Shown: positions 21,566 through 43,242 of the stretch, piece by piece | Numbering within the stretch: the stretch's first letter is position 1 | Layout: each line of letters begins with the position of its first letter | DNA from: a virus | Reading direction: 5' to 3' (one strand) | DNA length: 46,336 nt | IMG/VR virus record: IMGVR_UViG_3300026255_000010 | Notes under the pieces: generated by a model | Databases searched by the model: none | Seen by the model: only the letters and a program-made list of their open reading frames with translations | What the model was told of the DNA's origin: nothing | Translations under genes and position numbers: made by a program

Positions 21566-21853
21566 TCATGAAAACGTGTAGTGTCTATTTATTTTCTTTA
21601 TAATTGATAGAAATGGCAGATGCGATTCATATTTCTTCAGCTGGTTCATCAGCACGATCGAGCCCGTAAAAGTGATGTGCTGCTTACCTTCCAGTTCGAA
21701 GTGAATCGTGAGATATTGTGTGCCTTTCTTCTGGTGACTGTCTTTGATTTTGTATCCAATAACCAGGATTTCTTTGTTCAGGACCTCGTCGAGCCGGAGC
21801 TTCTCTCCTTCGAATGATTCTTCTTCGGCGAAGTCTCCGAACCGTTCAGGCAT
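21566..21853 (-). CDS. Small beta-rich protein coupled to the DGR RT (candidate non-Avd accessory protein)
   Basis: ATG overlaps the last RT codons; alternating hydrophobic strands (EILVIGYKIK, YLTIHFEL, HITFTGS). Confidence 0.7.
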   Translation of the reverse strand: MPERFGDFAEEESFEGEKLRLDEVLNKEILVIGYKIKDSHQKKGTQYLTIHFELEGKQHITFTGSIVLMNQLKKYESHLPFLSIIKKINRHYTFS

Positions 21854-22844
21854 TGGCAAGCCCCAGAGATTGCTTGAAGTTGAAGCTATTCGCCCATAGA
21901 AGCCATCCTTCTGTAGATGCTATTGAAGATCTGTATTGGTCCAGAGATATCTCTCCTCTGGCCAACTTGCGAGGAAGTTCCTGCATCCTGTGCTTGATTC
22001 GCTTTGCGGTGGATTTCCTGACAAGAATGTGGTTCGGAAAATGTCGGTATCCCAGAAAGTCTATGCCCTGCTGTACAGGGAATATATCATTCTTGCTCAA
22101 GGATAGATCAAGCCTTTCCGCAAGGAAACGCTCTATTTCCTCGGCCACCAGTCGCAGGAACCTCTTGTCTTGATGGAGCAGAACGAAGTCATCGCAGTAT
22201 CTTATGTAATACCTGATCTTCATTTCGTGCTTCAGGAACTGGTCTAGCTCGTTCATGTAGAGGTTGCCAAGCCATTGGCTTGTGTAGTTCCCAATCGGCA
22301 CGTTCTTGCCTCCTGGAATGCTGTAGATGATGTCCCCCAGCAGCCATAGAGTGTCCGGGCACTTGATTTTTCTCCGGACGATCCCAAATAGGATGTCGTG
22401 GTCTATCGATGGATAGAACTTCGAGATATCCATTTTCAGGCAATAAGCGCCGTGTCCTGCCGCTCTGATAAAGTCCATAGTTCTTCGACTTGCGGCATGA
22501 ATTCCTTTTCCGGTCCTGCATGCATACGAGTCATGGATGAACAGGCCGCTCCAAACTGGCTCAAGGACGTTCATCAAGGCATGTTGGACCACTCTGTCAG
22601 GATTGAAAGGCAGCTTGTAGATGATCCTCTGCTTCGGTTCGTAGATCATATTCTCCGTGTACGGAGATGTGGTGAAGGTCTTTTCAATCAGAGCGTCCAT
22701 GATATTGAAAATGTTCTCATCCAGATCATCATCGAACCGGCTGATAGTATTCTGCCAGCTCTTGCCTTTTCGGGCCTTTTTATATGCCAAGTAGATATTA
22801 TCCAGCTCAGTTATCTTATCCCAAAGATTTCCGTGTCGCTTCAT
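21846..22844 (-). CDS. DGR reverse transcriptase (332 aa)
   Basis: LKMDISKFYPSI, VPIGNYTSQWLGNLY and YIRYCDD motifs; adjacent TR/VR pair. Confidence 0.95.
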   Translation of the reverse strand: MKRHGNLWDKITELDNIYLAYKKARKGKSWQNTISRFDDDLDENIFNIMDALIEKTFTTSPYTENMIYEPKQRIIYKLPFNPDRVVQHALMNVLEPVWSGLFIHDSYACRTGKGIHAASRRTMDFIRAAGHGAYCLKMDISKFYPSIDHDILFGIVRRKIKCPDTLWLLGDIIYSIPGGKNVPIGNYTSQWLGNLYMNELDQFLKHEMKIRYYIRYCDDFVLLHQDKRFLRLVAEEIERFLAERLDLSLSKNDIFPVQQGIDFLGYRHFPNHILVRKSTAKRIKHRMQELPRKLARGEISLDQYRSSIASTEGWLLWANSFNFKQSLGLANA

Positions 22845-22968
22845 GATTATTTTTGAGAGAAGCAACGTTTTCTTGCGTTACTAGCTGCTCCTCTCCTCCG
22901 TTGTGTGTTTTGCCTTTCGACAAGGTCAGCGAGTCCAGCTAGGAGTTAGCTTCGCAACCAATCCTAGA

Positions 22969-23085
22969 TCTGTGACTGCGCGGCAACTGATATTCGAATT
23001 CGTATTCGACTGCTGATTATTCGCATTACGTGCCTGCGAACTGCAATTCGTCGCATTATTCCAATTACTGCCTGCAATAACTGCT
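22969..23085 (-). repeat. DGR template repeat (TR)
   Basis: 117 nt with ten AAT codons; differs from 23148-23264 at 30 positions, all TR adenines. Confidence 0.95.
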
Positions 23086-23107
23086 CGACTCGCCCGACCT
23101 ATTACCG

Positions 23108-23126
23108 GCCTATGCTGCGCATAGGC
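23108..23126 (-). other. DGR target-recognition hairpin downstream of VR
   Basis: Perfect 8-bp stem GCCTATGC/GCATAGGC with a 3-nt GCA loop, 12 nt after the target stop codon. Confidence 0.8.
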
Positions 23127-23137
23127 ACGAATAACGA

Positions 23138-24481
23138 CTACTGTGGCTCCGCGACCGCGCGGCAACCGAAAGACGAATGCGCAACCGACCGCCGATAAAG
23201 CGCATAACGCGCCCGCGAACCGCAAGACGCCGCAGAAGTCCAATAACCGCCCGCAATAACCGCTGCCTGTGCCTGGCATGTTCCTTGACCGTAATGGGAC
23301 CCTCTTGTCCCGCTGATATCCTCGTAGCTGAACACAATTGCTGTGGCATAATCCGCTCCGGCTATGTAGCTCTGCCGATCCTGGAGCCAAGTCCACCAGA
23401 CTCCGGACATGTCCTCCAAGCCAATGTTTGAGACGATCCTTCTGGATGCAGTATCCACATGTCCACCAACGGTCGTCGGATTCGCGCTCCCGTAGATATT
23501 CGTCTCTTCTGGCGTGCCACTGTGGAGCTGCGCAAACTCCCAGTCTGTCATCATCCTAGCGCCTATATTTTTCAAGTCGTCTGCGAAATCGTAGAAATTC
23601 CGAGAGACAGTCGCGGCAGCTCCGAATACTGATGCGATAGATGCTCCTGTGCCGGAGAGGTGGTATATCGAGGCCCACAGAGGCGCATAATTCAGGCTGT
23701 CGAAATCGGTCGGCCCTCCCCAGGCAAACCCAGGAAGGAAGCGTCCATATGGCCGGTGCTTGAGATCTTGGATAGACCGAGGGATGATATCTCCTGCCAG
23801 GTAGCCTGTGAGGGGATGGCCGGAGATCGTGCCAACATTCGCGCATTCGCAGTGGAAGCAGCCGATTTTGCGGCTATTGTCTGCGGTGTAGCCAGCCGGG
23901 TAGGTGGTGGCGGCACTAAGGATGAGAACCGGAGTATAGCCACTTACTGGGACGCAGGCATAGATATAAAAGTCTTTGCCGGCACGGTTGGCCGGAGTGG
24001 CGTACTGCGAATCGTCCCAATTGGCCGCGGTGTCAAGGTCCAGCTCGACAGCGGCGGCCAGCTCGTAGGAATGGTTCCCGGCTCCCCCGACATTCACGAT
24101 CAGGTGACTAGGGGATACGAGCGTCCTCCGGTCTGCTGCCAGGCTGCTGCCCTTGTTCTTCCACATTCTATTGCGATTGTAATACGCATCTTGCCTCCCT
24201 GGGAGGCGATTCAGGAACGTCATAAAATCACCATCTTCAGATTCGTTGTAATATTCAGCCCAAGCCGATTCGTCTGCTTCATCGCAATCAGGCAGCCCTA
24301 GAACAAGATCGACACTGAACCTTTTTTGGCATATAGGGCAATCACAAGTCGAAGTATCTTCGCCCGGATCGACATCATAAGGCAGTGTATGGCCATTGGG
24401 GCAGACGACATCTGCCCCTACCAGGATGCTTGCCTCAAAACCAATTCCGCATACAGGACAATGATAAGATCCGGTTGCCAT
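23138..24481 (-). CDS. DGR target protein with C-terminal CLec/FGE-like fold and N-terminal Cys-rich extension
   Basis: GARMMTDWEF, GLEDMSGVWWTW, GGYW...GSR...GCRAV CLec motifs plus VR; second in-frame start with RBS at 24223. Confidence 0.9.
   Translation of the reverse strand: MATGSYHCPVCGIGFEASILVGADVVCPNGHTLPYDVDPGEDTSTCDCPICQKRFSVDLVLGLPDCDEADESAWAEYYNESEDGDFMTFLNRLPGRQDAYYNRNRMWKNKGSSLAADRRTLVSPSHLIVNVGGAGNHSYELAAAVELDLDTAANWDDSQYATPANRAGKDFYIYACVPVSGYTPVLILSAATTYPAGYTADNSRKIGCFHCECANVGTISGHPLTGYLAGDIIPRSIQDLKHRPYGRFLPGFAWGGPTDFDSLNYAPLWASIYHLSGTGASIASVFGAAATVSRNFYDFADDLKNIGARMMTDWEFAQLHSGTPEETNIYGSANPTTVGGHVDTASRRIVSNIGLEDMSGVWWTWLQDRQSYIAGADYATAIVFSYEDISGTRGSHYGQGTCQAQAAVIAGGYWTSAASCGSRARYALYRRSVAHSSFGCRAVAEPQ
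23148..23264 (-). repeat. DGR variable repeat (VR)
   Basis: 3' end of the target gene, encodes AVIAGGYWTSAASCGSRARYALYRRSVAHSSFGCRAVA. Confidence 0.95.
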
Positions 24482-24494
24482 CTATACCTCAGAC

Positions 24495-24597
24495 CGTACG
24501 AGCGTCCTACGGTTGGCTGCGGTATCGCTGCCCTTGTTCTTCCACATTCTATTGCGATTGTAGTAGCCGTCCTGCCTGGCTGGAAGGCGGTTCAAGA
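24495..24597 (-). repeat. Diverged duplicate of the 5' part of the DGR target core
   Basis: Matches ~24115-24217 with a 36-nt identical core; NRLPARQDGYYNRNRMWKNKGS vs NRLPGRQDAYYNRNRMWKNKGS. Confidence 0.85.
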
Positions 24598-24632
24598 CTC
24601 GTCGGGGGCAGGGGTAGCGGATTCCCGTCTCT

Positions 24633-24773
24633 TCAGAGGCGGGAGGAGCGTACCCCGCTGTTATCTCTTTCATCCAAGATCCGGTTAATGATTGTGTCAT
24701 AGCTTTCTCCTTTCCTACCAAGTTCTTTGAGTCGATCTCGTGTTTTCGTCTTTAGCTGTATACAGGTGTGCAT
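24633..24773 (-). CDS. Ribbon-helix-helix/CopG-type DNA-binding protein (46 aa, not in the ORF track)
   Basis: MHTCIQLKTKTRDRLKELGRKGESYDTIINRILDE, typical archaeal RHH pattern. Confidence 0.75.
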   Translation of the reverse strand: MHTCIQLKTKTRDRLKELGRKGESYDTIINRILDERDNSGVRSSRL

Positions 24774-25329: not shown

Positions 25330-26662
25330 GTGACTTCCTCCCATGACTAAAGTCATGGGCTTCCTCTTTCACTGACCTGCTTTTGCAGTGTCTCTAGAGG
25401 CTCTTCCCCTCAGTCCGAGGGTGCGAATGTTTAGGCTGGCATTGAGATCCCTATCCATCTCTAATCCACAGTTGGGACAAAGATGGGTTCGATCTGCCAG
25501 CGTCTTAGGTACCATTATACCACATTGGGAACATTTCTGAGATGTATATCTTGCATCTACCAGTTCTACCACTTTGCCAGCCTTTGCAGCTTTGCTCTGA
25601 GTGAACTGGATCAATTTTCCCCAAGCATGGTCTTGAATATGCTTTGCTAGATGGTGATTCTTAAGCATACCTGAAATGTTAAGGTTCTCGAATACAATTA
25701 GATCCGCGGAATCGACCAGTTTTCTAGATACCTGGTTGAGGAATTCGTCTCGGAGGTTCTGAATTCTCTTACTGATCTTAGCTACTTTCGCTTTAGCCTT
25801 CCGCCTGTTGGCCGATCCTTTCTTCTTTCTGGAAAGGGATCTTTGGGCCGCTGCAAGCGTCTCCTCTAACTGGATGTAGTATCGAGGGTATTGGATTGAC
25901 TCACCGGCAGACGTGGTTATTAGGCTCTTCAGTCCAACGTCTACCCCTATTATGGTTGTTGGCTCAACGATATGGGCCTCCTCGATTTCCGCCACTAAGA
26001 CGGCGTACCAATGGCCCAGGAGATCTTTCTTGATAGTGCAAGTCTTGATTTTGCCTTCCACTTCACGATGCTTGAAGATCCTGATGGTTCCGATCTTGGA
26101 AAGAGTTAGCTTTGAGCCTTCGATCTTGAACCCTGCTTGGGGGTAGGTGAAAGACTTATACCAGCCTCGGCCCTTAAACCTGGGGTAGCCCGGCTTCTCT
26201 CCTGCCTTGACACGTCTGAAGAAAGCCTTGAAAGACTTGTCTAGCCTCCTGAGCACGTCCTGGAGAACCTGGGAGAAGATTCCCTGCCATTTGCCTTCCT
26301 TCTTCTCAAGGGTTAAGGTGGCCGCTTGATCCTCATAGGATCTACTAATGCCTTCCATCTCATAGCAATTCTTCCTATCAGCCAGAGCGGTATTGTAGAG
26401 GTGCCTGCAAGTTTCCAGAGTGACATCTAACATAGCTTCCTGTTGCTTGTTAGGGTACATCCTGAATTTGTAAGCTGTCTTCATACCGCACCTTCTAAGC
26501 AAAACCTATATTAGGAGATGAGGATATATAGTTATTGGTGGTCGGGAACCGCTACCTTCTAAGCAATTGTAGCCTCTTTTCCGACTGCCCAATATTCACA
26601 GTGGGGTCGATTCATCCCACGGTTAAAACCGTGGGTTTTCTCTCCCCCTACACCCCATCATC
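25330..26662 (-). mobile_element. Non-autonomous IS605/IS1341-type element (TnpB-1), target motif TTAT
   Basis: Left-end hairpin 26616-26635 preceded by AAAA, inserted after TTAT; right-end hairpin 25340-25359 preceded by GAAG, ending TCAC. Confidence 0.85.
25369..26484 (-). CDS. tnpB: TnpB RNA-guided endonuclease
   Basis: HTH YKFRMYP, RuvC D (GVDVG), E (FENL), D (RDLNA), CSQCG/CPNCG zinc ribbon. Confidence 0.95.
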   Translation of the reverse strand: MKTAYKFRMYPNKQQEAMLDVTLETCRHLYNTALADRKNCYEMEGISRSYEDQAATLTLEKKEGKWQGIFSQVLQDVLRRLDKSFKAFFRRVKAGEKPGYPRFKGRGWYKSFTYPQAGFKIEGSKLTLSKIGTIRIFKHREVEGKIKTCTIKKDLLGHWYAVLVAEIEEAHIVEPTTIIGVDVGLKSLITTSAGESIQYPRYYIQLEETLAAAQRSLSRKKKGSANRRKAKAKVAKISKRIQNLRDEFLNQVSRKLVDSADLIVFENLNISGMLKNHHLAKHIQDHAWGKLIQFTQSKAAKAGKVVELVDARYTSQKCSQCGIMVPKTLADRTHLCPNCGLEMDRDLNASLNIRTLGLRGRASRDTAKAGQ

Positions 26663-41987: not shown

Positions 41988-43242
41988 GTGACTACTCCCG
42001 CCAATTAATTAGCGGGCATCTAGGCTCTCGCCACAGACTGTAATCCCAGTCTGAGAATGTTTTTAGCTGCATTGAGATCTCTGTCCATGACTAGGCCACA
42101 TTTCGGGCAGTTATGGACTCGTTCTGAGAGATCCTTTTTGACTATCGAACCACAGCTTGAGCACATCTGAGATGTATATGCAGGATTAACCATGACCACT
42201 TTACGACCGGCACTTTCAGCCTTGTACGTAACGTAAGTCCTGAATCTATTCCAGCTTGCATCAAGCACGCTCTTGGCCATGTGAGGTTTCTTTTCAATGA
42301 GATTCTTGATATCTATATCTTCAAGGCAGATTATGCCATAATCATTGACTATCCGATGACTTAGTTGATGAGCAAAGTTATCTCTGAGATTACCAAGTCG
42401 TTCATAGATATGACTGACTTTCTTGGCAGCTTTCTTGCGTTCTGGTGATCTATGGGGGAGCTTGTCTTTCTTACTCTGCGCTGTGGCAAGCTTTTTTTCA
42501 CAAGATGCCAAATATCTTTGATTCTCTATAAATGTTCCATCTGAGAATACTGCGAAATTGGATATTCCCACGTCTATGCCTACCGCTTTCTCGGAATCTG
42601 GTACTGCGTCATTTGGTGCATCTTCTACTAAGAACGAGACATACCATTTTTTGGTAGATGATCTTTTTATGGTCAGCCTCTTAATGGTTCCATCAACTTT
42701 CCTATGCAACCAGACCTTAATATCTCCGATTTTGGAGAGATGCAAAACGTTATCCTTGAGCGCGAAACCACTTTGAGGATACGTTAAGCTGTCATACCAG
42801 TTTCTGCCTTTGAACCTTGGATAACCTGGTTCTTCTCCTGCTTTGACCCTTCGGAAGAACGCTTTGAAAGCCAGGTCTACCCTTTGAACAGCTTCCTGAA
42901 GAACCTGAGAATAGACTTCCGATAGCTCAGGTTTGGATTCTTTCCAGATAGGCAGCATCCTCTTAGATTCAAAGTAGCTTATAGATCGATCTTCATTCTC
43001 CCACGCATTCTTCCGTAGAGCAAGCGTCTCGTTGTAGACCCACCTACATAGATCAAGTTGCCTATTTAATATTGCAACTTGCGACTTTGTGGGCTTCAAT
43101 CTATAACGAAACACTTTAGGCATTATCAGTTAATAGGCTTCATTACCTAATATAGTTGTTGGTCCACAGGAAATAACAGCGGGGCACGATTCATCCCACC
43201 TCTGAAGAGGTGGGGATTCTCTGCCCCCGCACCCCGTCCTTA
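41988..43242 (-). mobile_element. Non-autonomous IS605/IS1341-type element (TnpB-2), target motif TTAG
   Basis: Left-end hairpin 43195-43214 preceded by AATC, inserted after TTAG; right-end hairpin 41997-42016 preceded by GATG, ending TCAC. Confidence 0.85.
42020..43123 (-). CDS. tnpB: TnpB RNA-guided endonuclease
   Basis: FRYRLKP HTH, GIDVG, CLEDI, RDLNA RuvC triad, CSSCG/CPKCG. Confidence 0.95.
   Translation of the reverse strand: MPKVFRYRLKPTKSQVAILNRQLDLCRWVYNETLALRKNAWENEDRSISYFESKRMLPIWKESKPELSEVYSQVLQEAVQRVDLAFKAFFRRVKAGEEPGYPRFKGRNWYDSLTYPQSGFALKDNVLHLSKIGDIKVWLHRKVDGTIKRLTIKRSSTKKWYVSFLVEDAPNDAVPDSEKAVGIDVGISNFAVFSDGTFIENQRYLASCEKKLATAQSKKDKLPHRSPERKKAAKKVSHIYERLGNLRDNFAHQLSHRIVNDYGIICLEDIDIKNLIEKKPHMAKSVLDASWNRFRTYVTYKAESAGRKVVMVNPAYTSQMCSSCGSIVKKDLSERVHNCPKCGLVMDRDLNAAKNILRLGLQSVARA

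Follow-up and report, generated by a model that had tools for sequence, protein, structure and literature searches.

The comparative data support well that the viral DNA analyzed here contains a genuine and active DGR of a known kind, which differs from its described counterparts by one unusual property: adenines of its template (TR) that stand directly before a G are rendered as G in the variable copy (VR) almost without exception. This pattern is reproducible, independent of protein selection, and restricted to one lineage of elements. As the best explanation, it appears probable that the template harbors two classes of adenines and that dC is inserted in a near-obligate manner opposite an A copied after a G, at the stage of cDNA synthesis; comparative sequence data point to the RT as the site of this misincorporation.

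The window, by which the whole analyzed stretch of 46,336 nucleotides is meant (IMG/VR virus record IMGVR_UViG_3300026255_000010), represents the genome of a tailed virus with terminase and Mu-F-like genes, and also contains two TnpB genes. Over the DGR region, it shares 81% identity with BK063673, which originates from a methanogenic enrichment culture and is recorded under Caudoviricetes with Methanosarcinales as predicted host, and the host of the window virus is likewise predicted to belong to the Methanosarcinales. The elements of the DGR are arranged in the order target-VR-TR-RT-accessory gene, with VR and TR lying only 62 nt apart (Table 1). A candidate for the DGR target-site hairpin is found just 3' of the VR, at the place where such a structure would sit, and no extended IMH/IMH* pair was recognized past the GC-rich repeat end that is common to TR and VR. 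One of the TnpB genes (both IS605 OrfB, Cas12f-like) is located 0.9 kb upstream of the DGR target. The same region contains a 101-nt direct repeat with 81% identity between its copies, which is part of the sequence coding for the N-terminal region of the target and is duplicated in an upstream 79-aa ORF. Because the repeat region is single-copy in four relatives (L082, L084, L086, and L091), the window seems to hold an insertion of ~380 nt, which appears to give its target a new Cys-rich N-terminus.

Table 1. Positions of the DGR components and of neighboring features in the window.
Feature	Position	Strand	Basis
DGR target gene (447 aa, Mtd-homologous tail-fiber protein, VR at C-terminus)	23138-24481	minus	Pfam, PHROG, Mtd structures
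VR	23148-23264	minus	ungapped 117-nt TR match; ends 10 nt before target stop codon
Candidate hairpin, 7-bp stem and 3-nt loop	23109-23125		read from sequence
TR, 38 adenines	22969-23085	minus	alignment to VR
DGR reverse transcriptase	21846-22865	minus	Pfam RVT_1; bRT structure alignment
95-aa accessory protein, overlaps RT stop codon	21566-21853	minus	conserved after RT in 53 loci
101-nt direct repeat, copy in target gene	24116-24216		81% identity to second copy
101-nt direct repeat, upstream copy	24497-24597		81% identity to first copy
79-aa ORF	24482-24721		contains duplicated part of target
TnpB gene	25369-26502		IS605 OrfB, Cas12f-like
TnpB gene	42020-43123		IS605 OrfB, Cas12f-like

Realignment of TR and VR reproduced what a preliminary description of this DNA had reported: the two sequences align over 117 nt without gaps and differ at 30 positions, each of which is an adenine in the TR (30 of 38), in line with the adenine-only differences that characterize DGRs (30/30). 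Of the changes from TR to VR, 15 are A>G, 9 are A>T, and 6 are A>C. The VR has G at each of the 12 adenines with a 5' C (p = 3.6e-7 in a Fisher test of CA against the remaining adenines, scored as G or not G), and likewise at both adenines in ACG. Five of the CA>CG changes affect third codon positions in the reading frame of the target (GCA>GCG four times, and the last base of ACA>GCG), all of them silent and located in Ala codons, again as originally described. Sorted by their 3' neighbors, the adenines before G or C are replaced by G at 14/14 positions, including all ten AG adenines, compared to 1/22 of those before A or T (p = 4e-9). The latter 22 adenines mostly belong to AAT codons, and 16 of them are changed to mixed bases, with 6 being kept. 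The claim that the TR holds two classes of adenines, a diversified one in AAT codons and another one before G or C that is written as G, is thereby borne out. Two further unchanged adenines (index 0 and index 116) are the repeat ends, at the boundary of homology. No second VR is present in the window.

The target gene product is identified as a tail protein by Pfam (mtd_2nd, E 1e-15) and PHROG (tail protein, E 3e-39), and its residues 143-444 align with Mtd of Bordetella phage (PDB 1yu0/2iou, E ~5e-10). As judged from this homology, which extends through the VR, the latter is located at the 3' end of a C-type-lectin/Mtd-type target, as in other DGRs. The alignment also upholds the view that Gly and Arg codons of the scaffold are written with A in the TR, since the Mtd-conserved residues of the motifs GG.W, GSRA, and FG.R are encoded as AGT or CAG in the TR and as GGT or CGG in the VR. 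Altogether, 9/14 recoded sites of the window are non-synonymous, four of these affecting Gly or Arg residues conserved with Mtd.

Other VRs on the same scaffold were collected by scanning public metagenome and viral contigs with a TR query in which every adenine was set to N, which leaves no bias on the replacing base. Including those of the window and of locus L001, 12 different and independent VRs were obtained, eleven of them from outside the window; G occurs at 143/144 of their CA sites, and the AAT sites show varied combinations of A, C, G, and T. An identical TR is present in the window, in L001/L093, and in L085, and a near-identical one in L082, and the VRs of the window, L001, L082, and L085 all differ from each other, which is evidence that the DGR is active. 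The presence of the same CA-rich TR beside different VRs indicates that the template has been used repeatedly. The preliminary description had regarded CG at these sites in the TRs of close relatives as a sign of recent TR mutation. Relatives do carry CG at some of the sites, but this does not reflect recent mutation of a dead TR, and the reading survives since the same CA-rich TR served several different VRs. Homologous TR sites toggle between CAG and CGG, with ratios between 10:0 (window) and 0:7 (clade L035-L042), and the VR always contains CGG, as expected if the element treats both spellings alike; in more distant relatives, CGG takes the place of the CAG present in the window TR. Non-adenine differences between TR and VR are rare among the relatives, and none of them is CG>TG. 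Those recorded (in L001, L013, L018, L023, L027, L036, L041, and L043) are mostly T>G changes beside an adenine (ATA, GTA), resembling the "snowball" effect reported for bRT.

Some relatives (L081, L083, L086, L088, L090, and L091) retain a target gene with a diversified VR and are devoid of TR, RT, and accessory ORF. The end of the VR is joined there almost directly to the equivalent of window position 21573, with at least three different junctions, which implies that the DGR cassette (window positions 21574-23129) has seemingly been lost repeatedly, leaving frozen VRs behind. In L089 (3028-4625), a TR remnant of 45 nt comes after the VR and is broken by a sequence like the TnpB elements of the window, and the RT is absent.

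An RT-based scan of viral contigs yielded 80 loci, from which 64 unique TR/VR pairs were extracted by script. The recoding of CAG to CGG first noted in the window is near-complete in these related DGRs, with values of 105/107, 62/62, and 34/38 in the different distance classes. Where the adenine of a CAG occupies a four-fold degenerate third position, G is found in 50/51 cases, which excludes protein selection as the cause. The original proposal of a CA-context rule stands as far as the near-deterministic and reproducible nature of the recoding is concerned, but the main determinant is the 3' neighbor, above all G, and not the 5' C. AG adenines lacking a 5' C are likewise converted to G at silent sites (GTA, TTA, CTA, and GGA, each followed by G), whereas only 43% of the CAA adenines (21/49) and 36% of the CAT adenines (4/11) are G. 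A rule based on the 3' neighbor fits the data better than one based on the 5' C and takes in both ACG adenines. The 5' C nevertheless adds something, as CAC adenines are recoded to G in 79% of the cases compared to 27-36% in the other NAC contexts. The base located 3' of a template adenine is the one which the RT has just copied.

In a second scan, an RT alignment was searched against prokaryotic genomes, each species being represented by a single one, and this contributed another 80 loci, distributed over many phyla, and 78 further TR/VR pairs. When tallied by lineage over 117 related DGR loci, which are not fully independent samples, the AG adenines fall into three patterns. In the Avd-less lineage with the accessory protein described below (OB-accessory lineage), they are G at 246/257 sites (96%) and remain A at 6/257; at four-fold silent sites G is found in 57/58 cases, in agreement with the earlier statement that protein selection cannot explain the recoding. 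A compact group without the OB-like protein, two loci of which carry Avd, shows G at 34/45 AG sites and at 5/6 of the four-fold silent ones. In the Avd-type DGRs, only 21/65 AG adenines and 1/9 four-fold silent ones are G, and 41/65 stay A. All other contexts are alike in the three groups, with G at 27-29% of AA, 33-39% of AC, and 17-24% of AT adenines. A quick tree of the RT sequences places the Avd-type elements with their low AG-to-G values in one supported cluster, and the high values are found in the remaining clusters, whose members come from Bacteroidota, Bacillota, Melainabacteria, Desulfovibrio, candidate phyla, and viruses. The trait tracks the RT clade, not the host. Among the loci with long VR-TR spacing, bAvd is encoded in 8/8 of those sampled.

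Two deviations from this distribution were encountered. The Avd-type locus L144 shows G at 7/8 AG adenines and constitutes an exception to its group. Within the OB-accessory lineage, the TRs of one clade (L035-L040 and L042) contain 0 CAG versus 38 CGG sites, unlike those of all their neighbors, and the sole AG adenine of this clade, in a TAG of L036, stays A. This near-absence of AG was unexpected and counts against a lineage-wide neutrality of such changes.

A separate regularity is seen at the 3' end of the TRs from several Bacteroidota loci (L109, L114, L119, L123, L126, and L128), where CTATGC of the TR corresponds to CTTTGC in nearly every VR, and the four-fold degenerate AT-context sites of the OB-accessory lineage show T at 13/18 positions. 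The former change reflects either an IMH/IMH* difference that is fixed or another near-deterministic context, with AT being read as TT.

The RT itself is of the usual DGR type. Its ORF as listed starts at a TTG codon, and the start is likely to be an ATG near position 22844, giving a protein beginning with MKRHGNLW. Residues 9-330 align with the structure of bRT from BPP-1 (8ub7, E 3e-58); the motif (I/L)GxxxSQ of the DGR clade is present as PIGNYTSQ, aligned to PIGSLTSQ of bRT, and the bRT residues R74 and I181, which tune adenine mutagenesis, are conserved. The 95-aa ORF directly following the RT gene is conserved in this position in 53 loci. It does not encode Avd, and the DGR of the window is Avd-less: the ORFs neighboring the DGR give no match to the bAvd family of Pfam, and an Avd HMM built for this analysis, which recovers Avd in 58 other loci, finds nothing at E<=10 when applied to the ORFs of the window in all six frames. 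Searches with the accessory protein returned no family in Pfam or NCBIfam and one weak match of unknown function in PHROGs. Its AF2 model (pLDDT 91) is a small beta-barrel, for which Foldseek lists weak matches in the PDB, mostly to OB domains (E > 0.02), and a fold resembling the OB fold is accordingly predicted from the model. Single-strand binding may be considered as a lead, as one Atlas neighbor cluster of the protein has Phi29 SSB annotated on 44% of its members. The link between the accessory protein and the recoding of AG to G is confounded with the RT phylogeny, and the protein may take part in the recoding.

Taken as a mechanism, these features would describe an active Avd-less DGR that serves a tailed virus to rewrite the tip with which an Mtd-like tail fiber binds its receptor. 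Adenines of AAT codons, with A or T as the next base, would be randomized in the usual way, and those before G, as well as most of those before C, would nearly always be rendered as G. Directly after a template G has been copied, the RT, possibly together with its small OB-like partner, would insert dC opposite the next adenine, which would make a CAG in the template equal to a CGG in the product. Mutations from G to A at these positions of the template would be silent and would hence accumulate, with the result that Gly and Arg codons of the scaffold as well as synonymous Ala codons come to contain A in the TR. Since the effect goes with the element irrespective of its host and concerns one dinucleotide context without touching the others, the most economical assumption is a step intrinsic to the element. 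What speaks against this explanation is that the AG context lowers the error rate of bRT, and a dC insertion of nearly 100% would represent a large quantitative departure. A simpler model in which the RT repeats the last inserted nucleotide was also considered; it fits AG>GG as well as AC>CC of bRT, and fails as the AC adenines of the lineage discussed here are converted to G.

Repair of T:G mismatches by the host, protein selection, and a decayed TR all appear unlikely as alternatives. Among these, a correction after synthesis survives best and still has only a small chance of being right. It assumes that AG adenines are copied faithfully, or as T or C only, and that the resulting T:G mismatch between cDNA and VR is converted to C:G, with the ancestral G being retained. 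At most of the affected sites, CA of the TR is replaced by CG in the VR; this corresponds to the mismatch context of a deaminated CpG, and the increased G fractions in CAC and CAA with their 5' C fit the same idea; moreover, heteroduplex intermediates of DGRs and an effect of MutS have been reported (10.1101/2024.11.15.621889). The same study in Bacteroides, however, favors all-or-nothing over site-by-site repair (10.1101/2024.11.15.621889). The conversion of AG adenines without 5' C at synonymous sites also argues against repair, and a general retention of G should inflate the G fractions of AA and AT, for which the lineage equals the Avd-type DGRs. Furthermore, the trait follows the RT clade over very different hosts, each of which would need the same context-specific activity, and neither a glycosylase nor Vsr nor a cytosine methylase was found among the window ORFs of at least 150 aa or among the DGR neighbors.

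The case for selection acting on an ordinary bias of the bRT kind is weaker still, and this reading is regarded as rather improbable. A moderate A/G mixture would be produced at AG sites, and only VRs with G at the Gly and Arg positions of the scaffold would survive. The preponderance of non-synonymous changes among the recoded sites of the window and their partial coincidence with Mtd-conserved Gly and Arg residues agree with it, as does the observation that bRT yields only A or G at AG sites (10.1101/2025.03.24.644984; PMC12875486). These points are outweighed by the four-fold degenerate AG sites, at which the lineage and the Avd-type DGRs differ as given above, and by the cost of such a process: at a per-site G probability of ~0.3, obtaining 12/12 in each of many VRs would cost ~1e-6 per event. 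In addition, no enrichment of G is seen at the AAT sites of these molecules, which argues against a global high-dC mode.

Editing of the template RNA, with adenines of the TR transcript before G or C being deaminated to inosine and then read as G by any RT, is very improbable. Such editing would give a deterministic A>G, and Handa and colleagues reportedly found in 2021 that the C6 group of the purine decides on adenine mutagenesis in DGRs, which would also count in its favor. However, there is no deaminase among the window ORFs of at least 150 aa or the DGR neighbors, the accessory protein is predicted as a small beta-barrel, not a deaminase fold, and the trait spans archaeal viruses as well as several bacterial phyla. 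The recoding context is also unlike the preferences known for TadA or ADAR. Least probable of all is a decayed template that gained G>A mutations after the last retrohoming, with the VR keeping the older sequence, which would agree with the CGG of distant relatives and the loss of the cassette in several others, and is contradicted by the pairing of identical CA-rich TRs with different VRs, by the restriction of all 30 differences to TR adenines without any CG>TG, which unselected decay would also produce, and by the recurrence of the pattern in 53 loci.

The Avd-less lineage with its OB-like protein can tentatively be proposed to use a code with two meanings, in which an A in AAY stands for "any base" and an A before G stands for "G," with a fidelity of ~98%. 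Invariant scaffold codons could then be spelled with adenine, and the identity of TR and VR in the window would fall from ~87% to 74%, which could protect the template from recombination with its own copy or from homing into it. The RT would represent a natural context-programmed A-to-G writer, and for engineering purposes, an enzyme that writes G at AG and randomizes AAY would make it possible to obtain fixed as well as variable edits with one template. The diversity of DGRs is usually estimated by counting every template adenine or adenine-bearing codon (ANMV-1: 21 codons); since at least a third of the adenines are not diversity sites in this lineage, such estimates would be too high by many orders of magnitude. 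Because DGR lineages diverge in their fidelity opposite A at a single context, where Avd-type elements read AG adenines as A and the OB-accessory lineage reads them as G, a clean comparative handle on adenine mutagenesis becomes available, and attention is directed to an uncharacterized accessory protein of Avd-less DGRs. The open-access papers and preprints searched do not describe a nearly complete conversion of AG to GG; a bias in this direction is known from BPP-1, and its near-complete penetrance, its restriction to Avd-less elements, and the consequence for the number of variable sites were not found in that literature.

Among the known systems, the DGR of ANMV-1 (Paul et al., 2015; PMC4372165) resembles that of the window in belonging to an archaeal tailed virus and in having an Mtd-like target. 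Its TR contains 21 adenine-bearing codons, only 9 of them AAY (PMC4372165), and thus shares with the window TR a large number of adenine-bearing codons of other types. Compared by description, it differs from the window element in that all 21 codons are counted as variable and an Avd is drawn (PMC4372165). The window element also resembles the Avd-less DGRs of Architecture A and Lineage 3 (Wu et al., 2018; PMC5758913), which consist of a TR-RT core without avd, and the Bacteroidota Avd-less members share RT clusters with it. Unlike that survey, which lists no accessory gene for Avd-less elements (PMC5758913), a small ORF is found here after the RT gene in 53 loci.

A further comparison is that with the DGR of BPP-1 (mtd, avd, TR, brt), which likewise has an Mtd-homologous target with a C-terminal VR, adenine-only differences, and a hairpin after the VR (a candidate one in the window), and whose bRT is homologous to the window RT including the conserved R74, I181, and SQ motif. 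In contrast to BPP-1, the window contains no Avd and has a 95-aa beta-barrel protein following the RT instead, its components are ordered target-VR-TR-RT-accessory with the short VR-TR distance given above, and its TR uses AAT, not AAC, codons and places adenines inside scaffold codons. With respect to the enzyme, the base just read governs the insertion opposite A by bRT, and the 5' base has no effect; errors at AG are almost exclusively A>G (dC) and occur at a reduced rate (mean error ~30%), and AC favors dG (10.1101/2025.03.24.644984; PMC12875486). Templates encoding invariant residues via adenine are not described in these papers (10.1101/2025.03.24.644984; PMC12875486). Unlike the situation with bRT, AG adenines appear as G in ~96-98% of the natural products of the lineage, and AC adenines are also turned to G; the tendency of AG adenines to mostly stay A with bRT is shared by the Avd-type DGRs (41/65) and absent from the OB-accessory lineage (6/257). 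What bRT (10.1101/2025.03.24.644984; PMC12875486) and the element described here have in common is that A>G is favored at adenines followed by G, by dC insertion in bRT and probably also here, as seen at 10/10 sites in the window and 246/257 in the lineage.
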